Below, one piece after another: positions 18,916 through 47,197 of a DNA stretch of 64,000 bases. This DNA comes from Potamolinea sp. (GTDB lineage Bacteria > Cyanobacteriota > Cyanobacteriia > Cyanobacteriales > Coleofasciculaceae), in assembly GCA_042408245.1 (NCBI GenBank), contig JAYFMV010000019.1, forward strand, positions 3,511 through 67,510. Reading direction: 5' to 3'. The translations under genes were made by a program, and so were the position numbers. Under the pieces are notes generated by a model. The model ran no database searches and was not told the DNA's origin. It saw only the letters and a list, made by a program, of their open reading frames with translations. The stretch's first letter is position 1, and each line of letters opens with the position of its first letter.

Positions 18916-19160
18916 TCAGTTGTCAGTTGTCAGTTGTCAGTTGTCAGTTGTACAGCCCTACGGGCATGAAAAACGGTTGTCAGTTGTTATTTGTTGGTTG
19001 TGTAGGGGCGTAGCATTTGCTCCCAAATATTTAGGTATTACCGACCATCTAACAATCGCTTTTGCTACGCCCTTCCTGTCAGTGATCAGTGCTTCTGATT
19101 ATCAATTACCAATTACCAATTACCAATTACCAATTACCAATTACCAATTACCAATTACCT
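18915..19160. repeat. heptamer arrays (CAGTTGT)x5 and (CAATTAC)x8 plus the inverted copy of the 35-bp element seen at 17701-17735
   Basis: Direct reading. ttgtacagccctacgggcatgaaaaacggttgtcagttg (18943-18981) is the reverse complement of aaccgttttcatgcctgtagggctgtacaact (17697-17728). Confidence 0.85.
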
Positions 19161-22100: not shown

Positions 22101-22622
22101 GGATTTTAAGAGCAAGCAAATGTTGAGCATTCCCTGAAACTTTCCTTCCCCATCTACCAAGGCCCAGTTCTCAGCAATAAGCCTTGGAGAGTGGGAAGAT
22201 GCGTCCATCCTTTTGCTTTCTTCCTCCCTAGTTGCCAATCCCCATTGCCCTTGATCTACTTCAGTCAGTCTCTCTCCAGACTTTTGTAAATATGCCCAGA
22301 ACTGTTCTAATTTCAGCTTTTCTGGTAGGATTACCAAAGGTTCAAGGAGCGGCGGATCTAGCTCAGAAAGAGGCTGGTGGAAATCAACAGAGGCGATCGC
22401 CACAGGAGTTTTCCCGTCATCAGCCGCTGGGAGCAGATAGGGCATTACCTGTCGCAGGTTGACCAATCCCAAGGGACGCTGCTGTTCGCTTACTACAACA
22501 ATTGCGTCACTCCCTGAAGACCTAAAAATCTCCAGCACGTCAGCGATACCACAAGTTGGTTCACAAACAGGAATGGCTTGAGCAAATTCTTTTAAGCTGG
22601 GAGTTGGCATTAACATGACCAT
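19155..22622 (-). CDS. multidomain hybrid sensor histidine kinase with three degenerate (pseudo-)receiver domains
   Basis: HisKA H-box EFLACISHELKTPLTAV and HATPase_c (G-box GTGLGLVLTQ). Three CheY-like folds follow in which the phospho-Asp position is not conserved, e.g. AILLNPLLPQLSGWD. Divergently transcribed from kaiA. Confidence 0.8.
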   Translation of the reverse strand: MVMLMPTPSLKEFAQAIPVCEPTCGIADVLEIFRSSGSDAIVVVSEQQRPLGLVNLRQVMPYLLPAADDGKTPVAIASVDFHQPLSELDPPLLEPLVILPEKLKLEQFWAYLQKSGERLTEVDQGQWGLATREEESKRMDASSHSPRLIAENWALVDGEGKFQGMLNICLLLKSLAPKLTATDVGASTLEEPEPAMLNSLVPLLEQLPLPLSIQTSTGQILAENLTWRTLIGTSPNLGCIRFSPAPGLDAPARELQSTQSSSVQQQNAATASVGRLGEAYASRLTKPVRRTSPNPLRNVTKQQYQPVAQAARERYCALDTPRMAATVSQLRSLLEEPPLLNFQDSPTAWEAFVPASEMRKNGIDRVFSFVKIPLPKSILKERDWIGQAGQLSYEIGENSSTNSYQSSQSPTTNLWLVLAQDTTEQQQVAQELTAKNADLVQLNRLKDEFLACISHELKTPLTAVLGLSTLLKDQTLGKLNDRQARYAKLIYQSGRQLMAVVNDILDLTRMETGQMELTLEPVQVQAVCDRAYSQALQRPSEKEPQDEESPEEIKFTLEIEPGLETLVADELRLRQMLMHLLSNALKFTEEGGEIGLRVSRWEGWIAFTVWDTGIGIPTEQQHLIFQKFQQLEKPLTRRFEGTGLGLVLTQRLARLHGGDVSFISKIGEGSQFTLLLPPCPPQASGNSEEDGEITQIPIPNPQCSIHNRLVLIVETVPRYLEGLTEQLRSFGYRVIIARSGTEAIEKARRFQPCAILLNPLLPQLSGWDVLTVLKSDAQTLHIPVLVTATQAEKQQAYHHKADGFLNLPVQEKALLHNLNCLCDSSPPTSSNLTILHLCPVGDDTRFHSSILSSEFTEFLSVQHSELNYRLLEADDLDQAELLSRIWRPDVILLDTVEIADPLNFLEEFSFYKALTSLPLVTLDRQTTEAANQLTGLTVYPCLTSDRTSKMPALLQVIQVAVGMTSKPSILVMDIGERSTQKAEVIPQCPQPSLVIGESAQGEGDSSKISTTPTSQASWLPAFIQYLQTAGFRSLLSSSWTEVYRQLQEQSVDLLVIRLRDINDSSTLVNELLSLTGLQTLPPILVLDHRLDSDSIREAIATSKASHLKQGKTNNRKSNSGLDALLKTLATKVLRGSSQSMSELLEQINQSLAQNR

Positions 22623-22935: not shown

Positions 22936-23853
22936 TTGCATCCCCAACTGACTATCTGTACGTTTGTGCCTTCCGAATCCCTGACTCAGTCGTTGAGTCA
23001 GTTTTTGAGCAGCGAACGCTATATCTTGCACATCACTGTTTCAGAATCCGAGTTTTTCGAGTTTGTGGATCGACACAAGCAGCAGCTTGATTGTTTGGTT
23101 GTACAGGATGAACACTCATTATTGCCAGTACTCAACCGACTATACGAGCAAGGAACGCTGCTACCTGTTGTAATTTTTCCCCAGGAATTGGTAGAAGTCA
23201 CGTCTTGCGTTGCTAGCAATCAAGAGATCGAAACCAGTCAGACGCTGAATGAGGCCGAGGTGGCCAAATTAAATCATCTGTTCCATGCCGCTGAAGTCCG
23301 AGTCAATACTACCCAATTGCCTGAGATTAGGAGCTTTATTGAAAAAGCGATCGCTCAGTTTGTCTCTCTTTCTCCGGCCTATACCTTTCCCGATTGGTCT
23401 ACCACTGTCGAGCGCCAAACCGATCTGACCCCTAATAGTTTCCTCATCCAGCAGCAGTACCGATTATCTGAAAAACTCAAGGAAAGACTTGGATACCTGG
23501 GTGTGTATTACAAAAGAAATTCCCAGCTTTTTTTACGTAATCTAGCTCCAAAGCAAAGAGAAAAGCTTTTAGAAAAATTAAAATTCGGGTATCGTCAGAT
23601 CGTTTTAAAGTATTTTTCTCAAGAAGATTCCCTTAATCAACAAATCGATAGCTTTGTCGAGCAAGCATTTTTTGCTGATATTCCAGTCTCTAGGGTTGTG
23701 GAAATCCATATGGAACTAATGGAAGAATTCGCCAAGCAGTTGAAGCTAGAAGGGAGAAGCGAGGAGGTGTTACTAGATTATCGACTGACCCTGATCGATG
23801 TTATTGCTCACCTGGGCGAAATGTATCGACGGTCTATCCCTAGAGAGTTATAA
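22936..23853 (+). CDS. kaiA: circadian clock protein KaiA (full length, with N-terminal pseudo-receiver)
   Basis: The N-terminus is colinear with Synechococcus KaiA: LTICTFVPSESL vs IAICIWVESTAI, and KQQLDCLVV vs RDQIDCLIL. C-terminal HMELMEEFAKQLKLEG..LIDVIAHLGE. Gene order kaiA-kaiB-kaiC. Confidence 0.85.
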   Translation: MHPQLTICTFVPSESLTQSLSQFLSSERYILHITVSESEFFEFVDRHKQQLDCLVVQDEHSLLPVLNRLYEQGTLLPVVIFPQELVEVTSCVASNQEIETSQTLNEAEVAKLNHLFHAAEVRVNTTQLPEIRSFIEKAIAQFVSLSPAYTFPDWSTTVERQTDLTPNSFLIQQQYRLSEKLKERLGYLGVYYKRNSQLFLRNLAPKQREKLLEKLKFGYRQIVLKYFSQEDSLNQQIDSFVEQAFFADIPVSRVVEIHMELMEEFAKQLKLEGRSEEVLLDYRLTLIDVIAHLGEMYRRSIPREL

Positions 23854-23992
23854 TACAAACCTTTAGCTATCAGCTTTTAGCGCTAAGCTTGAAGAAAGCT
23901 CTTAAATTTACCTAGTTTTTGAGTTGATTTTCGGATGACCTTGTATTCTTAACCTGTATACTTGCTGATTGCTTATAGCAACTTACAAAATT

Positions 23993-24307
23993 ATGAGTCC
24001 GTTAAAAAAAACTTATGTTCTCAAGCTTTATGTAGCTGGAAACACTCCCCACTCTATTAACGCTTTGAAAACACTTAAAAACATCCTAGAACAAGAATTT
24101 CAAGGAGTTTACGCCCTAAAAGTGATTGATGTCCTAAAAAGCCCACAGCTAGCTGAGGAAGACAAAATCTTGGCTACACCAACTTTGTCCAAAGTCTTAC
24201 CTCCACCTGTCCGAAAAATCATTGGTGACCTTTCGGACAGGGAAAAAGTTTTGATAGGCTTAGATCTTCTTTATGAAGAACTGCGAGAAGAGGAATTAGA
24301 TTTTTAG
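23993..24307 (+). CDS. kaiB: circadian clock protein KaiB
   Basis: [49 protein letters not shown] is near-identical to KaiB. The upstream in-frame M at 23969 is unlikely to be the start. Confidence 0.95.
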
Positions 24308-24386
24308 TTAAACGTCCAAGACTATAGTAGAGTAGCCTTGAATATTCTAGTCAAACCATTGGGTCTGATTAGAGAAAAAACTTTTT

Positions 24387-25964
24387 TTGACAATAACAGA
24401 AAACATGAATCAATCTAAAAAAACTGAACAAAAGCCTGACACTTTAACATCGGTAGGAGTCCATAAAATAAGGACGATGATCGAAGGTTTCGATGATATT
24501 AGTCATGGAGGTTTACCGATTGGGCGCACCACCATCGTCAGCGGAACATCTGGCACCGGAAAAACGCTGTTAGCGATTCAGTTTCTCTATAACGGAATTG
24601 CCTATTTTGATGAGCCTGGTGTATTTGTAACTTTTGAAGAATCTCCCACAGATATCATTAAAAATGCTTACAGTTTTGGTTGGGATTTACAACAATTAGT
24701 TAATGATGGCAAGCTATTTATTTTAGATGCCTCACCAGATCCAGAAGGACAAGAAGTTGTCGGAAACTTTGACCTTTCTGCCTTAATTGAACGCATTCAA
24801 TACGCCATTCGTAAATATAAAGCCAAGCGAGTTTCTGTTGATTCAATTACTGCAATCTTTCAACAATACGATGCTGCTTCAGTAGTAAGAAGAGAGATTT
24901 TTCGCTTAGTTGCACGTCTCAAACAAATTGGCGTGACAACAGTAATGACAACAGAAAGAGTTGAGGAATATGGTCCAGTAGCCAGATTTGGAGTGGAAGA
25001 ATTTGTCTCCGATAATGTGGCAATTGTTCGTAACGTCCTAGAAGGGGAACGTCGTCGTCGTACCATAGAAATTCTCAAGCTGCGTGGTACAACCCACATG
25101 AAGGGCGAATACCCTTTTACTATGACTAACCAGGGTATTAATATCTTCCCGTTAGGAGCAATGCGCTTGACTCAGCGTTCTTCCAATGTTCGCGTATCTT
25201 CAGGTGTTGAAACTCTTGATAAAATGTGCGGTGGTGGTTTTTTCAAAGATTCAATTATTCTGGCAACTGGTGCTACTGGTACTGGCAAAACTTTGCTGGT
25301 TAGTAAGTTTATCGAAAATGCTTGCTCGCGAGGCGATCGCGCTATTCTTTTTGCCTATGAAGAATCTCGCGCTCAGTTGTCTCGTAATGCTTATTCCTGG
25401 GGTATTGATTTTGAGGAAATGGAACAAAATGGTCTACTAAAAATCCTTTGCACTTACCCAGAATCATCAGGACTAGAAGACCATTTACAAATTATTAAAT
25501 CGGAAATTGCTGAATTTAAGCCTTCTCGAATTGCGATAGATTCCCTTTCTGCTTTAGCGCGAGGAGTTAGTAATAACGCTTTCCGGCAATTTGTGATTGG
25601 CGTTACTGGTTATGCAAAACAAGAAGAAATTACGGGATTTTTCACTAATACTACTGACCAGTTTATGGGGTCTAATTCAATTACAGATTCTCATATTTCC
25701 ACGATTACTGACACAATTTTGATGCTGCAATACGTGGAAATTCGCGGAGAAATGGCTCGTGCTATCAACGTTTTCAAAATGCGTGGTTCTTGGCACGATA
25801 CAGGTATTCGTGAGTACACTATTAGTGAAGATGGGCCAGATATCAAGGATTCATTCCGCAACTACGAAAGAATTATCAGTGGTTCTCCCACTCGTATTCC
25901 TGTGGATGAAAAGAGCGAACTTTCCCGAATTGTTCGAGGTGTACGCGAAAAATTAGAGGAATAA
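24387..25964 (+). CDS. kaiC: circadian clock protein KaiC
   Basis: Duplicated RecA-like domains, Walker A GTSGTGKT and GATGTGKT, C-terminus SFRNYERIISGSPTRIPVDEKSELSRIV. Colinear with S. elongatus KaiC along its length. Confidence 0.97.
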   Translation: MTITENMNQSKKTEQKPDTLTSVGVHKIRTMIEGFDDISHGGLPIGRTTIVSGTSGTGKTLLAIQFLYNGIAYFDEPGVFVTFEESPTDIIKNAYSFGWDLQQLVNDGKLFILDASPDPEGQEVVGNFDLSALIERIQYAIRKYKAKRVSVDSITAIFQQYDAASVVRREIFRLVARLKQIGVTTVMTTERVEEYGPVARFGVEEFVSDNVAIVRNVLEGERRRRTIEILKLRGTTHMKGEYPFTMTNQGINIFPLGAMRLTQRSSNVRVSSGVETLDKMCGGGFFKDSIILATGATGTGKTLLVSKFIENACSRGDRAILFAYEESRAQLSRNAYSWGIDFEEMEQNGLLKILCTYPESSGLEDHLQIIKSEIAEFKPSRIAIDSLSALARGVSNNAFRQFVIGVTGYAKQEEITGFFTNTTDQFMGSNSITDSHISTITDTILMLQYVEIRGEMARAINVFKMRGSWHDTGIREYTISEDGPDIKDSFRNYERIISGSPTRIPVDEKSELSRIVRGVREKLEE

Positions 25965-27236: not shown

Positions 27237-28865
27237 TTAAAAAGGGCGATTATCACGCAGAATTTGCAGATTCTTACGGATGGTAACAGTATTGGGATGA
27301 TTTGTTCCTAATCTTCGTTGGGCAATCTCTAAAGCTTGCAGATACAAAGGTTCAGCTTCAGTGTAGCGTCCTTGAGATTTGTAGAGACCTGCCAAGTTGT
27401 TGAGACTGGTAGCGACAGCGGGATGGTCTTCTCCCAGAAGGCGTTTTGTCAACTCTAAAGCTTGCAGATACAAAGGTTCAGCTTCAGTGTAGCGTCCTTG
27501 AGAATTGTAGAGACCTGCCAAGTTGTTGAGACTGGTAGCGACAGCGGGATGGTCTTCTCCCAGAAGGCGTTTTGTCAACTCTAAAGCTTGCAGATACAAA
27601 GGTTCAGCTTCACTGTAGCGTCCTTGAGATTCGTAGAGTGCTGCCAAATTGTTGAGACTGGTAGCGACATTGGGATGGTCTTCTCCCAGAAGGCGTTTCC
27701 ACAACTCTAAAGCTTGCAGATACAAAGGTTCAGCTTCAGTGTAGCGTCCTTGAGATTTGTAGAGGTATGCCAAGTTGTTGAGACTGGAAGCGACATCGGG
27801 ATGGTCTTCTCCCAGAAGGCGTTTGGTCAACTCTAAAGCTTGCAGATACAAAGGTTCAGCTTCAGTGTAGCGTCCTTGAGATTTGTAGAGGTATGCCAAG
27901 TTGTTGAGACTGGAAGCGACATCGGGATGGTCTTCTCCCAGAAGGCGTTTGGTCAACTCTAAAGCTTGCAGATACAAAGGTTCAGCTTCAGTGTAGCGTC
28001 CTTGAGAATTGTAGAGACCTGCCAAGTTGTTGAGACTGGTAGCTAAATCCTCCTCTAAACCAAACTCTTTTTGTAAATCAATTGCTTTGCCAAGATACTG
28101 GATTGCTAGAATTTGTTCCTGCTGATAATCCTGCGATTCTCCCTGGTCTAATCTTTTTTTATAAATGCTTCCCATTCTGAAATAAAAATCCGCCAAACTA
28201 GGGTCTTTTTTCCCCCTTTGCTGTTCAATTTTTCTAATTAATTCCTGCAAGTCTTTTAGGGGTATCAACGAAGTGCCATCTTCATCTGTACCCAAGAATT
28301 TCTGTTCTTCTGGAGTCAAGCGTAAGTCAGTAAATTCTTTCCTTAAAACTGCACTTCTCTTTTTAGAAGCAAACCGAAAAACACCCTTGCGCCAACTCCA
28401 AAAATCCAGAGCTTTTTTACTCAAACTTGCCTGAATTTGATTCGTCATCCAGATCACAATTGGAAAAGGAAACTCTCGCATTCCTTCCCGCGTCCACTGT
28501 AAATAACCGAAAAAAAGATCTTGCTCTGAGCGTTTTTCACCAAGTTTCAAAAAGTAAAACTGCTCGATACCCGTCACCGTCAAAACCGCTTGTCCACCCT
28601 GACGCAGATACTCATCTTTTGCCACTAACTCAGCAATAGCCGCCCTCAGACTAGGTTCCCTGCGTGCTAATGTTACCCGATAGGGACGCATCTCTGGCTG
28701 CAATTCTGCCTCATATCGTTGAATTATCTGCTCACGGAAATCAAGCTGATCACATACTGCAATCAACAAGCTCAACTTTCCCTGACTTGCTTCAATTGAA
28801 ACCAGCAAATCATCATAACTATCTTCATTTTGATCTGTCGTATCTGGGAAAGATTGAGTGTCCAT
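27237..28865 (-). CDS. TPR (kinesin-light-chain type, TPR_10/12) repeat protein with uncharacterised 280-aa N-terminal domain
   Basis: Six near-identical 42-aa repeats LNNLAxLYxSQGRYTEAEPLYLQALELTKRLLGEDHP. The start ATG abuts the upstream ATPase stop (TAAATG). Confidence 0.8.
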   Translation of the reverse strand: MDTQSFPDTTDQNEDSYDDLLVSIEASQGKLSLLIAVCDQLDFREQIIQRYEAELQPEMRPYRVTLARREPSLRAAIAELVAKDEYLRQGGQAVLTVTGIEQFYFLKLGEKRSEQDLFFGYLQWTREGMREFPFPIVIWMTNQIQASLSKKALDFWSWRKGVFRFASKKRSAVLRKEFTDLRLTPEEQKFLGTDEDGTSLIPLKDLQELIRKIEQQRGKKDPSLADFYFRMGSIYKKRLDQGESQDYQQEQILAIQYLGKAIDLQKEFGLEEDLATSLNNLAGLYNSQGRYTEAEPLYLQALELTKRLLGEDHPDVASSLNNLAYLYKSQGRYTEAEPLYLQALELTKRLLGEDHPDVASSLNNLAYLYKSQGRYTEAEPLYLQALELWKRLLGEDHPNVATSLNNLAALYESQGRYSEAEPLYLQALELTKRLLGEDHPAVATSLNNLAGLYNSQGRYTEAEPLYLQALELTKRLLGEDHPAVATSLNNLAGLYKSQGRYTEAEPLYLQALEIAQRRLGTNHPNTVTIRKNLQILRDNRPF

Positions 28866-30152
28866 TTAAATGTGTCCTCTTTCTTGCAGCAGTTCAGTCA
28901 CAATCGGGTGAACATCGTACCAAAGTTTAGCATTCCTATACTCTAAAATATACAAGCCATGTAGTAAATCCAGAAACTTTTGTTCTTTCGGATCATTGGG
29001 TCGAGATTCCTTGTAAGTTGTTTCTAAAATCTGGTAATCATCTGTACCAATCCGAGTATCGAAATCAAGACTGAGTTTAGTAATAGCTTCCTTGAGAATT
29101 GCCTCATTGATTTTAATATCAGTACGTTCAGGGTAACGCCGAACTAAGCGTAGGCAAATCCGACAACATTCATTGGCAATTCTGATTAACTCCCGCAAGA
29201 CTCCACCGCTATAAATAATAATTTGCTGGGCTGTTTGTTCTTCAATCAATTCATGGGTGAGCCGTTTGTTGAGAATTTCGCAAAGCCTTGCGGTTGGTTC
29301 GGCTTTTGGGACAGCATTCGGTTGACGACGTTCTCCCATAGCAAAGAGTTTTGAGACTGGCATGGGGATAATTTGATTATTCGTCTCTGTCTCAATCAGA
29401 GACATCAGAGAAACTTCTCTTAAGGCAGCAATAGGTATGGTAAAAATAATCCTAAAGTTAGGTTGAAATAATGCCTTAATATGCTCTTGGAATACTTCTC
29501 TTACCAGTTCCAAGTCTAATTTATCTAAGTCGTCAATAATAACCACAATATCTTGATTTGTTGCTGCATAAACAACAGCAGCAATTTCATTGATGCGAGC
29601 AATTAAATCAGAGACTTTGCGGGCAAATTCTTGCTTAATTTCGTTACGAGTAGAGGCATCTGCTTTGAGCTTACCAGAAATTAGTTTGAATAAATTAAAG
29701 CCAACCGAACCTTCAGCTTTGTACTCTTCTGTTTTAATCTGAGTCCGATTAGCAAACCATTGATAAAAAGCATCTTTAGTTGTTTGTTTAATGTTGACTT
29801 GCCGTTTTTCTGCTTGCTCCATGAGGCGAACTGCAATGGCAAAAAGAATATTAATATGATTGACATCTGACATTTCAATCATGTCGGAAATTGAGAAAAT
29901 GACAACAAAATATCTGTCCCCAATTCGCCGACTCAACTCAGAAAGTAAGGTAGATTTACCACAGCCACGATGACCTGTGAAAACAATTTTTCCGTCACCT
30001 GAAGGACTATCTTCAACCAGTTGTTCTAGTTCTTCAATAACTTCAGTACCGTACTCTACTTTAAATTTTTCTAATTCTTTTTGCTCCAAAAGTGGCAGCA
30101 ATTCCAAGTTTCTGTAGGCTTCTCGAAAAGACTCTAATAATTCGTTAGGCAT
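28866..30152 (-). CDS. P-loop NTPase, STAND/AAA_16-like
   Basis: Walker A GHRGCGKSTLL, Walker B IVVIIDDLDKLD, then a helical C-terminal half. Co-transcribed with the TPR gene. Confidence 0.75.
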   Translation of the reverse strand: MPNELLESFREAYRNLELLPLLEQKELEKFKVEYGTEVIEELEQLVEDSPSGDGKIVFTGHRGCGKSTLLSELSRRIGDRYFVVIFSISDMIEMSDVNHINILFAIAVRLMEQAEKRQVNIKQTTKDAFYQWFANRTQIKTEEYKAEGSVGFNLFKLISGKLKADASTRNEIKQEFARKVSDLIARINEIAAVVYAATNQDIVVIIDDLDKLDLELVREVFQEHIKALFQPNFRIIFTIPIAALREVSLMSLIETETNNQIIPMPVSKLFAMGERRQPNAVPKAEPTARLCEILNKRLTHELIEEQTAQQIIIYSGGVLRELIRIANECCRICLRLVRRYPERTDIKINEAILKEAITKLSLDFDTRIGTDDYQILETTYKESRPNDPKEQKFLDLLHGLYILEYRNAKLWYDVHPIVTELLQERGHI

Positions 30153-30222: not shown

Positions 30223-30690
30223 GAAGTCCGACACCCTCAAGGGTGCGGCTACCTGAACAAAGTCCGCCTGCGCGGACTAAATGCCCAAGACTTGTGATAG
30301 CCTGCGTAGGCAGGCTTGGTTCCTGTAGCCCCAGGCTTAAGCCTGCGGGGCTTTTGAGCAACTAAATGCCGAACAATGGTGATCTAAGCCCGACACCCTC
30401 AAGGGTGCGGAACCACACGAACAAAGTCCGCCTGCGCGGACTAAATGCCCAAGACTTGTGATAGCCTGCGTAGGCAGGCTTGGTTCCTGTAGCCCCAGGC
30501 TTAAGCCTGCGGGGCTTTTGAGCAACTAAATGCCGAACAATGGTGATCTAAGCCCGACACCCTCAAGGGTGCGGAACCACACGAACAAAGTCCGCCTGCG
30601 CGGACTAAATGCCCAAGACTTGTGATAGCCTGCGTAGGCAGGCTTGGTTCCTGTAGCCCCAGGCTTCAGCCTGCGGGACTTTGATGAGAA
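30223..30690. repeat. three tandem copies of a ~163-bp unit rich in internal hairpins
   Basis: Units start at 30223, 30386 and 30550. Copies 2 and 3 are near-identical. Internal palindromes include caccctcaagggtg, gtccgcctgcgcggac, agcctgcgtaggcaggct and caggcttaagcctg. The last copy overlaps the final 8 codons of the MVP homolog. Confidence 0.9.
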
Positions 30691-38596: not shown

Positions 38597-40756
38597 ATGA
38601 GAACACTGATCATTGACAACTACGATTCCTACACGTTTAACCTATATCAGGCGATCGCCCAAGTGAATGGAGAACTTCCTCTAGTGGTTCGCAATGACCA
38701 GTTTGAATGGGAAGACCTGAAAGCATTGAACTTCGATAATGTGGTAATTTCACCTGGCCCCGGTCGTCCAGAAAAGCAATCAGATTTTGGCGTTTGTAGA
38801 CAGGTGATTGAGAATGTGGATGTGCCCTTGCTAGGAGTTTGTCTGGGGCACCAAGGACTTGGCTACCTATTTGGTGGAACAATCATTCATGCACCAGAAG
38901 TTCGACACGGTAGACTCAGTAAAATTTATCATAATGGCTCTGAATTATTCCAAGGCATTCCTAGTTCATTTTCTGTGGTACGCTACCACTCCTTGTTAGT
39001 TGCAGATCAATTACCTGATTGTCTAGAAAAGATTGCTTGGACTGAGGAAGGATTGGTGATGGGATTGCGTCATCGGGCTCTACCATTTTGGGGTGTACAG
39101 TTTCACCCAGAGTCTATCTGTACAGAATATGGACAAACATTACTAGAAAACTTTAGAAATATCACGCTGCAATTTACAAAAAAATCCTCAAAAAGTCCAG
39201 AAAAGCAGTGTTGGACAGGATATGGATCTACTTCTCCTCCTATTAATAAACTATATCAAAAACAGTCACCTAAATTTGAATTTCATAAACGCAAACTGGA
39301 TATTTGCCCGAATACAGAACAAATATTTGTCCATCTGTTTCAGCAAGCACCAAATGCCTTTTGGTTAGACAGTAGCCGTGTAGAAAACGGTTTATCTCGC
39401 TTCTCATTTATGGGTGATGGAAATGGGGCAAACAGTGTATTAGTGCGCTACCATACCAAAACACAAGAACTCATCATCACACAGTCAGATAGTGTGACCA
39501 GTCGTACCGAGAGTATTTTTGAGTATCTCAAGCGGGAAATTGACCTCCGACGTTGCCAAGATTTGGAGTTACCGTTTGATTTTAACTGTGGATTTGTTGG
39601 CTATTTTGGCTATGAACTCAAGGCAGAATCTGTCCTGCCATTGATGCATTCTTCACCATTACCTGATGCAATTTTCTTACTTGCCGATCGCCTGATTGCC
39701 ATCGATCACCAAGAACAGTGTCTTTACTTGCTACACCTAGTTAAAAAAGGGCAAACAGAACAGGCAGAAATTTGGTTTGATACTATCACTCAAAAACTCG
39801 AAAACCTGACTCCTCTTCATCCCCTGATACCCCAGGGAAATAGTAAGCAAATAAAGTTTCGTTTAAGTCGAAGTTACCAAACTTACATTAATGATATACA
39901 CCATTGCTTAGACGAAATTTATGAAGGAGAAACCTATCAAGTTTGCCTCACCAATCAGCTTCATACTGATATAACCCCCGATCCATTGACGTTCTACCGC
40001 ACATTACGTCGCCTCAATCCTGCCCCTTATGCTGCATTTTTGCGCTTTGGGGAAATAGCGATCGCCTGTTCGTCTCCAGAGCGATTTTTGCGGATTGATC
40101 AGCAGGGTTGGGTGGAAACTAAGCCTATTAAAGGAACGCTACGACGAGGAGAATTCCCTGAAGAAGATTCCGTCTTTCGGGAACAGTTAAGAAACAGTGA
40201 AAAAGACCGAGCTGAGAATCTGATGATTGTGGATTTGTTACGCAATGATTTGGGACGAGTCTGTGAAGTGGGTAGCGTTCACGTACCCAAGTTAATGGAT
40301 GTAGAAACCTATGCGACGGTGCATCAATTGGTGACAACAGTACGTGGGCATTTGCGACCAGATTTACAAGCATTAGATTGCATTCAGGCGGTATTTCCAG
40401 GAGGCTCGATGACAGGTGCACCTAAGATAAGAACCATGCAAATTATTGATCGACTCGAACAAGAAGCAAGGGGAGTGTATTCAGGGGCGATCGGTTTTTT
40501 GGGATTGAATGGTTCAGCCGATTTGAATATTGTTATTCGTACTGCTGTTCTGACTCCTAATCAAACTTATATTGGTATCGGTGGCGGTATTGTGGCACTT
40601 TCTGACCCTGAGATGGAGTTTCAAGAAACCATGCTTAAAGCGCAAGCCTTAATCCATGCTATGGTTTTCACAGTTCACGGAACATTTGAGCCAGATCATT
40701 ATCAGATTCTGGGAGTAGAATCAACAATTGATGATAGTTGTAAACTACCTATTTAA
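38597..40756 (+). CDS. fused glutamine amidotransferase / chorismate-binding enzyme, aminodeoxychorismate synthase (PabA-PabB fusion)-like
   Basis: N-terminal class-I GATase (LGVCLGHQ, catalytic Cys). C-terminal chorismate-binding domain with PIKGT (Lys as in PabB; TrpE has PIAGT). The G-to-E domain order matches PabAB/PapA, not TrpEG/PhzE. Confidence 0.8.
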   Translation: MRTLIIDNYDSYTFNLYQAIAQVNGELPLVVRNDQFEWEDLKALNFDNVVISPGPGRPEKQSDFGVCRQVIENVDVPLLGVCLGHQGLGYLFGGTIIHAPEVRHGRLSKIYHNGSELFQGIPSSFSVVRYHSLLVADQLPDCLEKIAWTEEGLVMGLRHRALPFWGVQFHPESICTEYGQTLLENFRNITLQFTKKSSKSPEKQCWTGYGSTSPPINKLYQKQSPKFEFHKRKLDICPNTEQIFVHLFQQAPNAFWLDSSRVENGLSRFSFMGDGNGANSVLVRYHTKTQELIITQSDSVTSRTESIFEYLKREIDLRRCQDLELPFDFNCGFVGYFGYELKAESVLPLMHSSPLPDAIFLLADRLIAIDHQEQCLYLLHLVKKGQTEQAEIWFDTITQKLENLTPLHPLIPQGNSKQIKFRLSRSYQTYINDIHHCLDEIYEGETYQVCLTNQLHTDITPDPLTFYRTLRRLNPAPYAAFLRFGEIAIACSSPERFLRIDQQGWVETKPIKGTLRRGEFPEEDSVFREQLRNSEKDRAENLMIVDLLRNDLGRVCEVGSVHVPKLMDVETYATVHQLVTTVRGHLRPDLQALDCIQAVFPGGSMTGAPKIRTMQIIDRLEQEARGVYSGAIGFLGLNGSADLNIVIRTAVLTPNQTYIGIGGGIVALSDPEMEFQETMLKAQALIHAMVFTVHGTFEPDHYQILGVESTIDDSCKLPI

Positions 40757-40796
40757 TGTAATATATAGTGTGGTAAATTAGCAGGAAGACTTAGTT

Positions 40797-41088
40797 ATGA
40801 AGCAGCTAGAACCGTTTAGAAAAAAAATTGACGACTTAGATCTTCAGATTATCGAGCTTTTGGGCCAGCGGTTTGACATTTGTAGACAGGTTGCTCATTT
40901 AAAAAAGGCAGAAAACATTCCTATGATGCAATCAGGACGCAGTTGAAGAAGTAAAAAACAATTGTCAGGAACTAGCTGTAAAAAACTCAATGAGACCCAG
41001 ATTTTATGCTGGAAGTTGTACAGCCTAATTATTGAGGAAAGCTGTCGAACGGAAGATGCAATTATTGAAAAAAAATGATTCAAGGAGA
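40797..41088 (+). pseudogene. AroQ-class chorismate-mutase-like gene disrupted by two compensating frameshifts
   Basis: The frame from 40797 gives MKQLEPFRKKIDDLDLQIIELLGQRFDICRQVAHLKKAENIPMMQ, then a TGA at 40944. The +1 frame gives QDAVEEVKNNCQELAVKNS. The original frame then resumes with LNETQILCWKLYSLIIEESCRTED. All three pieces align to the AroQ helices. The frame shifts flank A6 runs. Confidence 0.5.
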
Positions 41089-41098
41089 ATAAAATTTT

Positions 41099-41896
41099 AT
41101 GGTTCTGGATACTCGCAATCATGACCCGGCTCAAGAGGTTGCTGCCGAGAAAATCTTGCTTGATCGACTTGATAAGTACTACCTAGATATTATCAATTGG
41201 TTTTTTCAAACGATACTGCAAGATTTAACACCAAACAAAATTCTGGATGTTGGTTGCGGAACAGGTCATCTCTTAGAGTTTTGCGAGCGAACTTTGAAAA
41301 CGACTGTTACTCCATCTTTTTATGGAGTTGATCTCAATCAGTATCTGATTACTAATGCGAACCAGCGTTTTCCATCCTATCAATTTGAAGCAGCAGATGC
41401 GACTCACTTGCCTTATCCAAACGAAACTTTTGATCTCGTTTATGTCTCGACTGTACTTGCTCATGTACCAAGTGGTATGGACATTTTAAAGGAAATGGTG
41501 CGAGTCACAAAAATAGGTGGAACGATCGCAGTTTTAGATCAAGATTTTGAAACAGCGGTGCTTTATCCAGGTGACAAACAACTCACTCGTAGTGTTCTCA
41601 ATGCTGCTGCAGATTACTGGAGTGATGGTTGGATTGGTCGAAAATTACCCAGTATGTTTAAACATTTAGGACTGACTGAAATCAAAGTTGATGCTCGTGT
41701 TCGCATCGATCGCCACTTTGACCAACCTTTCTTTGAACGAATTCGCAATTGGATTGTTGAAGCAGGGTTTCCGTCAGACCAAGCAGAACGATGGTTTTCA
41801 GAGCTTTGTCAACAAGCAAGTATCGATGAGTTCTTATTTACTCGCAATTTCTATGCAGTTGCCGGGATTAAACAGATCAAGAGTCTGAGCGAATAA
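41099..41896 (+). CDS. class I SAM-dependent methyltransferase
   Basis: Motif I ILDVGCGTGHL, motif post-I YGVDLN, Rossmann fold. Confidence 0.8.
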   Translation: MVLDTRNHDPAQEVAAEKILLDRLDKYYLDIINWFFQTILQDLTPNKILDVGCGTGHLLEFCERTLKTTVTPSFYGVDLNQYLITNANQRFPSYQFEAADATHLPYPNETFDLVYVSTVLAHVPSGMDILKEMVRVTKIGGTIAVLDQDFETAVLYPGDKQLTRSVLNAAADYWSDGWIGRKLPSMFKHLGLTEIKVDARVRIDRHFDQPFFERIRNWIVEAGFPSDQAERWFSELCQQASIDEFLFTRNFYAVAGIKQIKSLSE

Positions 41897-41920
41897 TTCA
41901 GTTCTACCAAAAACTCTTAA

Positions 41921-42796
41921 ATGAATACTATTTACTTTGATTCTAGTGTTAGAGATGATCTGAGACGGCAGCGCCTTTATAATGGTCAAATCTTCGCCTT
42001 TTCTCCTCGTCCAAGTGTTAGCGCACTCCGACAATTAGTCTGCAATCTGATCGAGGCAACTTTCGGTTCACCGCTACCTCCAATGGTTGAGAAAAATTTG
42101 CCAGTTGAGGAATTTTTGGCTGCTGAATCTTCCCTTAAACAGCAGATTATAAATCACCCTCAAATCAAGCAATTGATTCAGTCGTTGCTGCAAGAGTTTG
42201 ATTGTGACTTGAGCAAAACTTATTTTGATTTACCACAGTTACGAATCGTACCTTTCCGAGGATATTTGCCAAACAATGAAGGACTGTTTCACGATCCGCA
42301 TAGAGATACTTGGTATGCTGCACCTCAGTGCTTAATTAACTGGTGGATACCCCTCTACGAATTTGAATCTGAAAGTGCATTGGCATTCCATCCCTTGTAC
42401 TGGAATCAGCCAGTTAACAATGACTCTCGTAACTTTAATCAAGAACAAGATTATAAGACCAACTTTCGCGAGGCTGAATTTCCGCATCCAGAACAAAAGA
42501 TCGAAATTGAGCCAGAAATTCGGATCGTCTGTCCAACAGGGGGAGTGATTCTCTTTTCAGGAGCACAGATGCACTCTGCAGTTCCCAACACTTCTGGATT
42601 GACAAGGTACAGTCTTGATCTAAGAACAGTGCATTTTGATGAGATCGTGACTAGGGGTGGTGCACCCAATATTGACTCTAATTCAACCAGTGCTTTGCTA
42701 ACAGATTTTATGCGAGGGACAGACCTAGCACATTTTCCTGATGATTTGATGATATCTCACCAGAAGAGTTCCGTAGCTTTGCCAACATTAATCTGA
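41921..42796 (+). CDS. PhyH-family Fe(II)/2-oxoglutarate-dependent dioxygenase (probable)
   Basis: FHDPHRDTW (H-x-D) and C-terminal MHSAVPNTSGLTRYS (H..N.S...R.S), the PhyH hallmark. Confidence 0.55.
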   Translation: MNTIYFDSSVRDDLRRQRLYNGQIFAFSPRPSVSALRQLVCNLIEATFGSPLPPMVEKNLPVEEFLAAESSLKQQIINHPQIKQLIQSLLQEFDCDLSKTYFDLPQLRIVPFRGYLPNNEGLFHDPHRDTWYAAPQCLINWWIPLYEFESESALAFHPLYWNQPVNNDSRNFNQEQDYKTNFREAEFPHPEQKIEIEPEIRIVCPTGGVILFSGAQMHSAVPNTSGLTRYSLDLRTVHFDEIVTRGGAPNIDSNSTSALLTDFMRGTDLAHFPDDLMISHQKSSVALPTLI

Positions 42797-42914
42797 GGCA
42801 CTACAGGTTACAATTTAGGGTTTGGTTTAAGAGCAAGTTGGTTTCAGTGAGATCAACGGGAGCCTGTGTGGCAAAATTAAAGGCGTATTAACGATTAATT
42901 ATCAGGTAATAGAA

Positions 42915-43997
42915 GTGACTGCCCAAGCACCTAGAACTGCCCACCGTCTGGTTTTTCCTTTCACTGCAATTGTGGGTCAGGAAGAAATGAAACTGGCTCT
43001 GTTGCTGAATGTGATTGACCCGAAGATTGGCGGAGTGATGATTATGGGCGATCGCGGCACGGGTAAATCTACTACTATTCGGGCATTAGCTGACTTATTG
43101 CCGGAAATTGATGTTGTTGCTGATGACCTCTTCAACAGCGACCCCACCGAACCCGATTGGCTGAACGAAAATGGCAATTCACAAATAAGGACAACTGTCA
43201 AGAAAAAAGTTCCGATGGTTGACCTACCCTTGGGGGCGACAGAAGACCGAGTTTGCGGCACGATTGACATCGAAAAAGCTTTATCTGAGGGTGTGAAAGC
43301 CTTTGAACCGGGACTGCTGGCCAAAGCTAATCGCGGTATCCTCTATGTAGATGAAGTCAATTTGTTGGATGACCACCTTGTAGACGTATTGCTGGACTCT
43401 GCTGCTAGTGGCTGGAATACCGTCGAACGGGAAGGGATTTCCATTCGTCACCCTGCACGTTTTGTGTTAGTAGGTTCCGGTAACCCTGAAGAAGGTGAAC
43501 TACGTCCGCAATTGCTAGATAGATTTGGGATGCATGCGGAAATTCGCACTGTCAAAGAACCAACTTTGCGCGTGCAGATTGTGGAAGAAAGGGCAGAATT
43601 TGACCAAAATCCCCAAGAATACCTGCAAAGTCACCAATCAGAGCAAGAAGTCTTGCAAAAACAGATTGTAGCGGCTCAAGAGTTACTTCCTCAAGTTGAG
43701 ATGGACTACGATTCGCGGGTGAAAATTTCCCAAATCTGTTCAGAACTAGATGTGGATGGTTTGCGGGGTGATATTGTGACCAACCGTGCTGCAAAGGCAA
43801 TTGCTGCTTTTGAAGGACGTAACGAAGTCACCATTGACGATATCCGTCGTGTCATTACCCTCTGTCTGCGTCACCGCTTGCGGAAAGACCCCCTAGAGTC
43901 GATTGATTCTGGCTACAAGGTACAAAAGGTCTTCAGCCGCATTTTTGGGTTAGAGGCGTCTGAGAATGCAGCAGTTACAGCTAACGGTGCTCGCTGA
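42915..43997 (+). CDS. chlI: magnesium chelatase ATPase subunit I
   Basis: [41 protein letters not shown], canonical ChlI/BchI. Confidence 0.95.
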
Positions 43998-44189
43998 ACA
44001 AATTCCCGCAGCGTCGAGTCCCTGGGGCTACGGAAACAAAGCCTGCGCAGGCAGGCTTAAAATTTTGTTGGTATTTAGTTCGCTGACAACCAGGAAAGTC
44101 ATAGGTTGCAGCTTACTAGATGCGTTTGCTTGCCACTATACGAGTAACTCAATAACTCAATAAATAACCAGTCGTAGTTACTAATTGAA

Positions 44190-45437
44190 CTATTTAGCAG
44201 TAAGGGTCAAAGGAGCACCCAATCTGAGATTCAAGTCTGTATTAGGTTCGATAGAAATCAGATCGACACTGCTTTTACCGAGGAAGTTTTGAATCAAGCT
44301 CAAGACTACACCAGCACCACCACCGATTAAGAGTTCTTCAGTAGCGATCGCCCGGTCACCAGTGACTGCAGAGATAGCAGCAGCAGCAGCAGTACCCAAA
44401 GCTGCATTCTTCACAAAAGTCCCAACATTAACGCCCTTCTTAATTGTTTCAGTTTTGGTAATCACATCAGAAGTTGCGTTGATGGCCATCGATTGACCAC
44501 CCATATTCAGGGTCTTGGCGACAAACTGAGAACCACCTGTAGCAGGACGTAAGTCACCAACAATTTCGCTACCAGCAGCAATTAATACTCTGCCGTCAGA
44601 GGTTGTGATGTTGCGGTCTACTGTTAGTGTTAGAGGAACAGTTTCATCTTTGGTGACGAGAATTTTTGACTTTTCGTACTTAACAGGGAGCACAGTTCCA
44701 GCAGGAATTGTGACAGTACTTGATACTGGTGCTTGATTGACGATGTATTGCGAGCTGATGGCTTGCGCTGTACCTTGGCTGACGAGTGCTTGGTAGAGGA
44801 AAGCTGCGACTTCGGCGCGAGTTGCATTACGAGTCGGGTTCAGGGTTGTCAGGTTAGGATAGTTAACAACCATGCGCTTTTCTGTCGCTGCAGCGATCGG
44901 AGCGCGAGCAAAGCCAGAAATGTTGGATGAGTCGTTGTAGTAACTCAGAACAGTTTCTGTTGATTGGCTTGCAGTGTAACTCAGTCCGTTGGAGAGAGAA
45001 GTTAAGACTTGCTCGCGAGGAATATTTTGCTCTGGTCTGAAGACGCTACCGGGATAACCAGCTAAAAATCCGGTGGTGTAAGATTCTTGAATCGCCGTAT
45101 ATGCCCAGTATGTAGAGCGTACATCAACGAAATTGATGGGAGTGCGAACGTTAGCCTTTTTGAACTCTTTATTGGCTTTACGCAGCATAGCCGCAAACTG
45201 TGCTCTGGTTACGGGAGCATCTGGCTTGAAGGTACCATCAGGGAAACCAGCGATGATATCCCGCTGTGCTAGTTGTGCAATAAAATCTCTGGCCCAATAG
45301 CTTGAGGAAACATCAGAAAAACCGGTTGATTGAGCGAAAGAAGGAGCTGCATTGAATATGGGTGCTATTGCACCAGCGCTGATTCCAAGAGCTAAAAGTG
45401 CAGCGGTTCCAGATTGCAAGCGGGGGAAGATAGACAT
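44190..45437 (-). CDS. S-layer homology (SLH) domain protein
   Basis: Signal peptide, then three SLH repeats (F.DV...W....I..L...GI..G...G.F.P), then a beta-rich C-terminal domain. Confidence 0.75.
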   Translation of the reverse strand: MSIFPRLQSGTAALLALGISAGAIAPIFNAAPSFAQSTGFSDVSSSYWARDFIAQLAQRDIIAGFPDGTFKPDAPVTRAQFAAMLRKANKEFKKANVRTPINFVDVRSTYWAYTAIQESYTTGFLAGYPGSVFRPEQNIPREQVLTSLSNGLSYTASQSTETVLSYYNDSSNISGFARAPIAAATEKRMVVNYPNLTTLNPTRNATRAEVAAFLYQALVSQGTAQAISSQYIVNQAPVSSTVTIPAGTVLPVKYEKSKILVTKDETVPLTLTVDRNITTSDGRVLIAAGSEIVGDLRPATGGSQFVAKTLNMGGQSMAINATSDVITKTETIKKGVNVGTFVKNAALGTAAAAAISAVTGDRAIATEELLIGGGAGVVLSLIQNFLGKSSVDLISIEPNTDLNLRLGAPLTLTAK

Positions 45438-45927: not shown

Positions 45928-47197
45928 GTGTTAAACCTGACCTACGAATTCAAGGTAATCCCAACGCCAGAACAGGTTCAGCTTATCGAACGCACGTTAA
46001 CGGTGTGCCGGAAAGTTTGGAACTTTGCCTTGCGTGAACGAAAAGATTGGTCGAACTCTCGTAAGTGTCAGATTAATGCTTGCTCTATTTCTGGAGAGTT
46101 CATTATTCCTGCCGACACCCCCTATCCCAACTATGCCCAACAATGCAAATCGTTAACTAAAGCCAAGACCGAATTTCCAGAACTGGCAACGGTTAACGCC
46201 CAAGCCTTACAACAAGTCCTCAAGAGACTGGAAGCAGCTTTTGTTGATATGAAGCGCAAGGGTATGGGTTTTCCTCGATTCAAGAACCGATACCGGATGC
46301 GGTCATTCGTGTATCCTCAACTGGGCAGGGGGCAGCTTCTCTTAGGAAACCAAGTTAAGTTGCCTCAGTTAGGGTGGTTGGAATATGTCAAGTCAAGAGA
46401 AATACCAGATGGGTTTGTAGTTAAACAAGCTCGAATCATTGGTAAAGCATCTGGCTATTTCATCCAATTGGCGTTGGAATGTGATGTATCTGTTCCTGAT
46501 GTCATGGCCTCATGGTCATCCTGTTGGAATTGACCTGGGGTTAGGCAAATTTGTCGCAACTTCTGACGGACTCGTGATTGATAGACCCAGATTTTTAGGC
46601 TTGCTGCATCGGAAGCTGAAATTGCTCCAACGCAGACTTAAGCACAAGAAAAAGGGGTCAAATAATCGTCACAAACTCAACAGGAAGATTGCCCGGTTGC
46701 ATCAGCACATCAGTGATACCCGCAAGGACTGGCACTTCAAATTAGCCCACAAGCTGTGTGACGGTGCTGGGATGATATTCGTTGAGGATATCGACTTCCG
46801 AGTATGGGCAAAAGGGCTGTTTGGGAAACACACCCTTGACGCTGGTTTTGGGCAGTTTTTGTCCATCTTGAAGTTTGTGTGCTTCAAGCGCGGCGTGTAC
46901 TTCGACAAAGTAGATAAGAATTACACCTCACAAGTCTGTCCTCAATGTGATGCACACACAGGCAAAAAAGAACTGTCTGACAGGGTTCACGCTTGTCCTG
47001 AATGTGGGTACACAACACATAGAGATGTAGCAGCAGCACAAATTGTCCGTAATCGTGGACTGTCTGGGGTGGGACGCATCCTGGACGAGCAAGAAAATGC
47101 CTGTGGAGACGGTCTGGGGGGAACGGGAAACCGTTTACTTAAGAGTCCGAGAAGCAGGAAGAAGAGTGGAGAGGCGTGTCTTAAGACCGCCTCGTAA
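45928..47197 (+). mobile_element. tnpB: IS200/IS605-family (IS1341-like) tnpB, frameshifted
   Basis: Two overlapping frames, 45928-46533 and 46439-47197. VGIDLGLGKFVATSDG (RuvC-I), C-terminal Zn-ribbon CPQCDAHTG...CPECGYTTHRD. No tnpA. Downstream hairpin tccccttgatttaatcaaggggag at 47211-47236. Confidence 0.8.

Follow-up and report, generated by a model that had tools for sequence, protein, structure and literature searches.

In a 64,000-nucleotide stretch of DNA (contig JAYFMV010000019.1; hereafter the window) from a metagenome-assembled Potamolinea sp., four adjacent genes at 38597-42796 most plausibly form a mobile cassette, organised like an operon, that would serve a specialised branch of chorismate metabolism, probably blocked in this genome; we put the probability of this reading at roughly 0.6. 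The proposed branch has four steps. PabAB, a fused synthase of the PapA type, would aminate chorismate at the expense of glutamine to give 4-amino-4-deoxychorismate (ADC), and a mutase of the AroQ fold would rearrange ADC to 4-amino-4-deoxyprephenate in strains whose mutase is intact. An Fe(II)/2-oxoglutarate (2OG) oxygenase and an S-adenosylmethionine (SAM)-dependent methyltransferase would tailor 4-amino-4-deoxyprephenate or its immediate derivatives in the third and fourth steps.

All four genes lie on the plus strand and are separated by only 18-40 bp. They comprise PabAB, an intact fused glutamine amidotransferase (GATase)/ADC synthase of 719 aa (38597-40756); the putative PapB-type AroQ ADC mutase, a probable pseudogene (40797 to about 41080); an intact class I SAM-dependent methyltransferase of 265 aa (41099-41896); and an intact PhyH-type Fe(II)/2OG oxygenase of 291 aa (41921-42796). 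Open reading frame (ORF) and Pfam analyses confirmed the positions, strand and identities given for these genes in the original prediction, which had been made from the letters of this DNA. The loci compared with the window carry the labels L001-L098.

We scanned one genome per species from 185,579 species with an oxygenase profile, followed by tblastn with all window proteins. The scan was bimodal. Every oxygenase homologue with at least 62% identity adjoined genes for PabAB, the mutase and the methyltransferase, whereas the other three genes were missing from 76 of 76 loci encoding PhyH homologues of 42-52% identity. The cassette loci, nine in all, were those of Microcoleus sp., Elainella saxicola, Plectonema radiosum NIES-515, Brasilonema angustatum, two cyanobacterial metagenome-assembled genomes (MAGs), L001, L002, and the metagenomic locus L008. 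All-versus-all comparison of the flanks showed that these four genes were the only ones common to the lineages, barring a spurious antisense ORF inside PabAB, and gene order differed once, with the oxygenase gene preceding the methyltransferase gene in L008. Because the same four genes are adjacent in nine loci with otherwise unrelated flanks, their association is far beyond chance. In Plectonema and Brasilonema, a MatE gene was located 3' of the cassette; in L008, this place was taken by an MFS gene. No description of this gene set was found in the searchable literature, and searches for a cyanobacterial cluster for ADC and its mutase, or for an oxygenase acting on 4-amino-4-deoxyprephenate, returned nothing.

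Pfam analysis of PabAB placed a GATase domain (residues 4-186) ahead of Anth_synt_I_N and Chorismate_bind (427-681) domains, with the PIKGT catalytic-lysine motif at residue 510. The amidotransferase motifs were also present, namely the Cys motif GVCLGHQ at residue 80 and the His motif FHPES at residue 169. The protein scored 382 bits against the NCBIfam pabB model TIGR00553 (curated cut-off, 328) and 428 bits against the fungal fused model TIGR01823, slightly under its cut-off of 442.6. The PabB-type lysine and the order of GATase followed by chorismate-binding domain, both noted in the original prediction, were thereby borne out. The closest PDB relative, 8hx6, is a 702-aa chain labelled "4-amino-4-deoxychorismate synthase" by its depositors; it matched over its full length (E 9e-210) and far outscored E. 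coli PabB (243 bits) and TrpE. The dN/dS value (ratio of nonsynonymous to synonymous substitution rates) of PabAB relative to L001 was 0.19.

In a neighbour-joining tree constructed without support values, the cassette copies and the 120 best PabAB matches split into two clades. One clade (about 72% identity) held the Anabaena cylindrica enzyme encoded in a nonribosomal peptide synthetase (NRPS) cluster. The window PabAB was placed in the second clade, where cassette copies were scattered amid many Nostocales sequences, and the PabABs of Oscillatoriales-type hosts (Potamolinea, Microcoleus, and Elainella) nested among sequences from Nostocales. Most members of this second clade lack the cassette, since the cassette-type oxygenase occurs in just six species representatives.

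Comparison with an empty site demonstrated that the cassette is an insertion into the 3' end of a DUF429 gene (37727-38464, plus strand; Pfam DUF429), which forms its left flank and lies outside the proposed pathway. In L097 and L098, chlI comes immediately after the DUF429 gene. In blastn, the L097 empty site matched the window at 37727-38433 and at about 42842-43997 with 88% identity and matched nothing between. L097 2781-2860, which covers the stop-codon region, aligned to window positions 42842-42922, and local alignment to L097 showed that the former end of DUF429, with its stop region, persists as a short stranded segment downstream of the cassette (42838-42858, plus strand). The insertion is thus evident from the end of homology at 38433, its resumption at about 42842, and the remnant of the old DUF429 stop on the right. 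The last DUF429 codons, past about 38433, come from the insert. As delimited by blastn and GC content, the inserted segment of about 4.4 kb (38434-42841) contains a leader, the four genes, and a short tail, and its GC content is 0.41, as compared with 0.44-0.45 in the flanks. A DUF429 gene adjoins the cassette only here and in the close relatives L001 and L002, and the upstream leaders of seven cassettes were unalignable between lineages. Judging from its sequence, the cassette is a horizontally acquired, mobile unit, given the empty site, the lower GC content, the unalignable leaders, and the nesting of Oscillatoriales-type PabABs among those of Nostocales. Together with the conservation of the four genes across distant cyanobacteria, the absence of the insertion from a relative supported the earlier suggestion of a small specialised pathway, in which the roles of the methyltransferase and the oxygenase are putative.

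An Rfam search of 36000-44200 at E values up to 1 found no relevant RNA element, and a scan for promoters and terminators was uninformative, with counts under the shuffled expectation. The DUF429 protein itself matched the PADLOC candidate anti-phage defence family PDC-S44 (E 1e-106), and its relatives bear the JGI label "predicted RNase H-like nuclease". About 3 kb downstream of the cassette, an IS605 OrfB/TnpB with a Cas12f-like TNB domain is split into two overlapping ORFs of 201 and 252 aa (45928-47197, plus strand) and is probably a decayed copy; an intact 382-aa TnpB relative is located upstream of the Brasilonema cassette (L007 2611-3759).

The original prediction had compared the AroQ gene with PapB by its position, and sequence comparisons now point the same way. 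A profile search started from six cassette mutases recovered 229 relatives. All 120 relatives listed retained the Arg and Lys residues that are catalytic in the E. coli chorismate mutase and carried the substitutions R47M, D48Q, E52V/I, V85C, and Q88E relative to that enzyme. The residues R8, R25, K36, and R48, equivalent to Arg11, Arg28, Lys39, and Arg51, were conserved in all cassette mutases. The motifs (I/V)PMMQPGR(V/I) and II.E.C..E were found in the cassette copies and in the same 120 relatives; the window copy reads IPMMQSGR/VEEV and IIEESCRTED across its frameshifts. These are PapB motifs, carried likewise by SvPapB of S. venezuelae, SpPapB of S. pristinaespiralis, and Pflu1772 of P. 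fluorescens (supplementary alignment of PMC4863162), and formation of 4-aminophenylalanine in E. coli needed papA, papB, and papC (PMC4863162). The contexts of the homologues agreed with the motifs: a mutase with 58% identity is encoded in an operon of PabAB, chorismate mutase, and prephenate dehydrogenase genes adjoining NRPS genes in a Pseudomonadaceae MAG, and mutases with 53-57% identity are encoded in NRPS clusters of Anabaena cylindrica PCC 7122 and Nostoc. We assigned the AroQ protein to the PapB type, predicted to convert ADC to 4-amino-4-deoxyprephenate.

The fold also permits a different reaction, since AroQ-fold enzymes can be lyases. The AroQ protein might act as a pericyclic lyase resembling PchB and convert ADC to p-aminobenzoate (PABA) in place of PabC, with the other two enzymes methylating or hydroxylating PABA. 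PchB was among the weak PDB matches of the mutase, no PabC-type Aminotran_4 gene lies beside the cassette, and E52 of E. coli chorismate mutase, which binds the C4 hydroxyl, is Val in the cassette mutase, as it presumably is in PchB. However, E52V in combination with M47, Q48, C85, and E88 is the exact signature of validated PapB enzymes from three organisms, and for this reason we dropped the lyase idea. The homologues in papABC-like and NRPS clusters also favour a mutase over a lyase, because 4-aminophenylalanine and the radiosumins retain both the C3 side chain and the 4-amino group; to our knowledge, moreover, Fe/2OG oxygenases rarely hydroxylate aromatic rings. The PABA route therefore has only a very slight chance of being correct.

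In the window, the mutase gene reads through only after correction of its frame, and the corrected sequence scored 66 bits against Pfam CM_2. Its lesions were defined by comparison with L001 and L002. In these close relatives, the proteins encoded by neighbouring genes share 94-97% identity with those of the window, and an undamaged mutase of 97 aa is encoded at the corresponding locus. The frameshift reported in the original prediction was confirmed: single bases have been gained at 40940, 40994, and 41016 and one lost near 41075, and a TGA codon lies in frame at 40944-40946. The mutase ORF was intact in the orthologues L001, L002, L008, L011-L013, L015, and L016. Given these lesions and the intact neighbours, the mutase is probably a pseudogene here, with the pathway predicted to be blocked after ADC.

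Alternatively, the frameshifts could be assembly errors and the cassette fully functional in this genome. The source is indeed a MAG, the three insertions total one codon and restore the frame downstream, and the mutase substitutions still look constrained (dN/dS 0.13). However, the 290 bp of the mutase contain four indels, whereas the flanking 5.6 kb of coding sequence (DUF429, PabAB, methyltransferase, oxygenase, and chlI; dN/dS 0.12-0.32) contains not one, a pattern that under a uniform error rate has a probability of about (290/5900)^4, that is, P < 1e-5. Only one or two of the four indels fall in homopolymer runs, and the spacers adjoining the mutase also carry indels, as expected for neutral sequence. 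On this clustering, random assembly error appears unlikely as the cause of the lesions, and a fully functional cassette in this genome very unlikely. On the window branch, polarised with outgroups, PabAB, the methyltransferase, and the oxygenase showed no excess of amino-acid changes, albeit from small counts, which indicates that the mutase was lost recently or that the other genes still matter.

Two further cassettes showed irregular reading frames. The Plectonema radiosum NIES-515 mutase (L014 8787-9062) has no ATG, GTG, or TTG ahead of the codon for the catalytic N-terminal Arg (frame ...*KSAINQLEQFR...), and the NCBI product is an 82-aa protein that starts at an internal Met and lacks this Arg; either an unusual start codon is used or this is a second impaired mutase. 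The PabAB of the Brasilonema angustatum MAG (L007 4480-6641, identical to L015 6480-8641) is divided into two overlapping ORFs of 450 and 283 aa by either a frameshift or an assembly error. The Brasilonema PabAB and the window mutase together suggest that the cassettes are often damaged.

The SAM-dependent methyltransferase and Fe/2OG dioxygenase that the original prediction had placed next in line are both present and intact, with their motifs. The methyltransferase matched Pfam Methyltransf_11 (E 3e-20) as well as Methyltransf_25 and Methyltransf_31, and carries the glycine-rich motif I (LDVGCGTG) at residue 49. Its matches to the UbiE/MenG, BioC, and Tam equivalogs were weak and all well under the cut-offs. 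It was present in all cassette loci with 43-96% identity, and its dN/dS was 0.12.

The oxygenase matched Pfam PhyH (E 8e-7; 30 bits against a cut-off of 22). Its HxD...H triad (H127, D129, and H218) and the 2OG-binding Arg (R229, 11 residues after the distal His) were invariant in 120 homologues. An AlphaFold model built from an alignment of 120 sequences reached a pLDDT (predicted local distance difference test) of 88.9; an earlier model based on 17 close sequences had a pLDDT of 52 and was unusable. The best Foldseek matches in the PDB were the Fe/2OG tailoring oxygenases SptF, AndA, PtlH, and EvdO2, with template-modelling (TM) scores of 0.4-0.5; the leading matches were Fe/2OG oxygenases without exception, and the model has the double-stranded beta-helix fold of this class. 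A sequence search of the PDB returned KanJ alone (E 0.3), and a plasmid collection contained no cyanobacterial match for the oxygenase.

In papABC pathways, the enzyme acting on 4-amino-4-deoxyprephenate is the NAD-dependent PapC. Searches by tblastn with the prephenate dehydrogenase (PDH_N/PDH_C) proteins of L094 and L093 gave no match in the window or in any cassette locus, and an ORF survey of the window revealed no prephenate-dehydrogenase-like candidate, in agreement with the original prediction that a PapC is lacking. Searches by tblastn with the proteins of the Anabaena NRPS cluster L091 likewise gave no match in the window or the cassette loci save MatE in L007, L014, and L015, and no NRPS, cupin, aminotransferase-GNAT, or histone deacetylase (HDAC)-like gene was found within 10 kb of any cassette or in the 64-kb window. 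As PapC, a BacA-like/cupin pair, an aminotransferase, and an NRPS are all missing beside the cassette, the oxygenase is the only candidate for the next committed step.

Our preferred guess is that the oxygenase stands in for PapC. It would abstract the weak, doubly allylic, alpha-amino C4-H, and oxidative decarboxylation would yield 4-aminophenylpyruvate; alternatively, it may hydroxylate the intermediate. The methyltransferase might then methylate the 4-amino group, by analogy with PapM of the pristinamycin pathway, which methylates a 4-amino group, and with the N-methyl residue of radiosumin D. This would yield a small C6-C3 acid, N-methylated and of the p-aminophenyl (or aminocyclohexadienyl) type, which three lineages probably export through the MatE or MFS protein encoded 3' of the cassette. 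We advance only tentatively, as a possibility we consider doubtful, the stronger proposal that the oxygenase is a new 4-amino-4-deoxyprephenate-processing enzyme, whether a decarboxylase/aromatase replacing PapC or a hydroxylase that leaves the ring non-aromatic, and that the cassette directs synthesis of an undescribed, exported N-methylated metabolite and has spread horizontally among filamentous cyanobacteria.

The presence of the cassette in Plectonema radiosum NIES-515 (L014), a species that we take to be the original source of radiosumin, raises a different role for its product. The cassette could supply precursors for radiosumin-like peptides by forming 4-amino-4-deoxyprephenate and N-methylating or oxidising it, for example towards the N-methyl residue Amyp, with an NRPS elsewhere in the genome using the product. 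The NRPS clusters of Anabaena cylindrica (L091 8668-20291 and L005 1-10166) and Nostoc sp. (L092 1-12856) encode a 198-aa protein, a cupin, a mutase, an aminotransferase-GNAT fusion, an HDAC-like protein, two NRPSs, and PabAB; the Anabaena cluster also encodes a MatE protein. The 198-aa protein showed faint similarity to the periplasmic-binding/cyclohexadienyl-dehydratase fold. Both the mutase and PabAB (71-72% identity) of these clusters are homologous to those of the cassette, and the MatE proteins beside the Plectonema and Brasilonema cassettes are 41-43% identical to that of Anabaena. A radiosumin-type NRPS cluster of Dolichospermum planctonicum UHCC 0167 was reportedly described by Ouyang et al. 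in 2023.

According to PMC13500791 and PMC10531186, the radiosumin cluster is of the NRPS type, spans 16.8 kb, and includes the MATE transporter gene radI; radiosumin combines two 4-amino-cyclohexenylidene amino acids in a dipeptide, and in radiosumin D one of the two is N-methylated. L091 and L092 fit these second-hand descriptions and are probably radiosumin-type clusters. However, they possess a PabAB and a mutase of their own and encode no homologues of the cassette methyltransferase or oxygenase, and their NRPS, cupin, aminotransferase-GNAT, and HDAC-like genes have no counterparts within the intervals searched around the cassettes. In addition, we know of no radiosumin producers among Potamolinea, Microcoleus, and Elainella. 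Supply of radiosumin precursors is thus an unlikely role for the cassette.

A more conservative explanation is that PabAB is an ordinary folate enzyme and that the three downstream genes are unrelated or decaying passengers. PabAB scores above the cut-off of the pabB equivalog model, stand-alone relatives that share 83-84% identity with it and are annotated as ADC synthase are widespread in Nostocales, and PabAB is intact and under purifying selection despite the dead mutase; folate supply could explain this conservation after the death of the mutase. A metagenome scan with PabAB yielded two short loci, both cassette-free. On the other hand, the four genes strictly co-occur in nine loci with different flanks, the whole block is an insertion missing in a relative, the mutase is of the PapB type, and the dN/dS values of the methyltransferase and the oxygenase are within 0.12-0.32. 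The original prediction had looked to the phylogeny of the chorismate-binding enzyme, together with its neighbours, to recognise a folate-pathway PabAB whose neighbours are not conserved. The tree alone assigns no function, as PabAB phylogeny cannot by itself separate specialised from folate enzymes when the closest cassette-free relatives are 83-84% identical, but the neighbours were found to be conserved. Three features argue for an accessory role of PabAB here, namely the strict association of the four genes, the polymorphism of the insertion, and the nesting of Oscillatoriales-type copies among Nostocales, and a purely folate-related explanation is quite unlikely. In the Nostoc locus with the stand-alone PabAB of 84% identity (L003/L004 10241-11798), the gene is followed by genes for an NmrA-like SDR and a cupin_2 protein on the opposite strand; no homologues of these two genes were found beside other PabABs.

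Several observations nevertheless weigh against a specialised chorismate branch. The stand-alone PabABs in the clade of the window enzyme (Nostoc, 84%; metagenomic, 83%) have no mutase, methyltransferase, or oxygenase gene nearby, and given these relatives the synthase could also serve folate synthesis. The methyltransferase fits no curated family, and the Foldseek search of the PDB provided no clue to the substrate of the oxygenase, its matches being remote and generic; the roles of both enzymes are guesses. The oxygenase has relatives of 42-52% identity outside the cassette; for those of about 50% identity, the neighbourhoods inspected, one in Tolypothrix and one in Alkalinema, were clusters of the sugar/polysaccharide type. 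Purifying selection on PabAB, the methyltransferase, and the oxygenase would be unexpected had the pathway long been dead, and the mutase indels are those of a metagenome assembly.

The remainder of the window contains further variable genes between kaiC and DUF429. The product of an 889-aa ORF (30666-33335, minus strand) is homologous over its full length to the eukaryotic major vault protein (MVP; Vault repeat, E 1e-60; MVP shoulder, E 6e-52). Next to this ORF are genes for a P-loop NTPase of the KAP/AAA_16 type (28866-30152) and for a TPR protein (27237-28865). L001, although syntenic elsewhere, seems to lack this block; only 0.9 kb separates its kaiC from a DUF433 gene. Two STAND-like TPR proteins are encoded on the minus strand (33801-35801 and 27237-28865), one with an NB-ARC domain and TPR_10/12 repeats. 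The kaiC-DUF429 interval is variable, since L001 has only short fragments at the place of these genes. A kaiA-kaiB-kaiC circadian clock operon (22936-25964, plus strand) lies beyond, preceded on the opposite strand by a gene for a 1155-aa hybrid histidine kinase/response regulator (19155-22622).

Pathways initiated by PapA and PapB provide the p-aminophenyl and aminocyclohexenyl units of chloramphenicol, pristinamycin, and obafluorin-type compounds and, by inference, those of the radiosumins, and they are used for production of aromatic amines by fermentation. A compact set in which PapA and PapB are joined by a methyltransferase and a 2OG oxygenase, with PapC, PabC, and NRPS all missing, suggests an unexplored fate of 4-amino-4-deoxyprephenate and possibly a new oxygenase reaction, testable by introducing the four genes into E. 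coli. Although the cassette is probably non-functional in the Potamolinea genome owing to the mutase pseudogene, it represents a clean case of a small biosynthetic unit that crossed cyanobacterial orders and then decayed gene by gene.

Among known systems, the oxygenase is closest in sequence to the 2OG-Fe(II) oxygenases of the "sporadic carbohydrate cluster" family TIGR04324 and their cyanobacterial, acidobacterial, and Nitrospira relatives (42-52% identity). The two groups have the same invariant metal and 2OG ligands, whereas 15 positions are fixed differently in the cassette oxygenases, the relatives never occur beside genes for PabAB, the mutase, and the methyltransferase, and the cassette oxygenase scored 19 bits against the TIGR04324 model, far under the cut-off of 150. 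With the folate pathway, the cassette shares the first reaction, chorismate to ADC, and a synthase recognised by the pabB model. It differs in that a mutase comes next rather than the pyridoxal phosphate-dependent lyase PabC, and in that its synthase gene is fused and located in an accessory insertion, whereas PabA and PabB of E. coli are separate.

The papABC pathways include those for pristinamycin in S. pristinaespiralis (with papM) and chloramphenicol in S. venezuelae (cmlB/D/C-type) and PFLU_1770-1772 of Pseudomonas fluorescens SBW25. These pathways and the cassette both have a PapA-type fused GATase/ADC synthase and an AroQ mutase with PapB motifs, and in the papABC-like operon of the Pseudomonadaceae MAG the PabAB is 50% identical to that of the cassette. 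Unlike them, the cassette has a PhyH-type Fe/2OG oxygenase in the place of PapC and no NRPS or other downstream assembly genes nearby. The radiosumin-type NRPS clusters, which like the cassette occur in cyanobacteria, share its PabAB and PapB-type mutase, whereas the genes for their 198-aa protein, cupin, aminotransferase-GNAT fusion, HDAC-like protein, and NRPSs are absent beside the cassette. Because PapC, NRPS, cupin, and aminotransferase genes were searched for and absent, the cassette belongs to neither class; what it resembles is the first half of both, that is, of the papABC (plus papM) and the radiosumin-type pathways.

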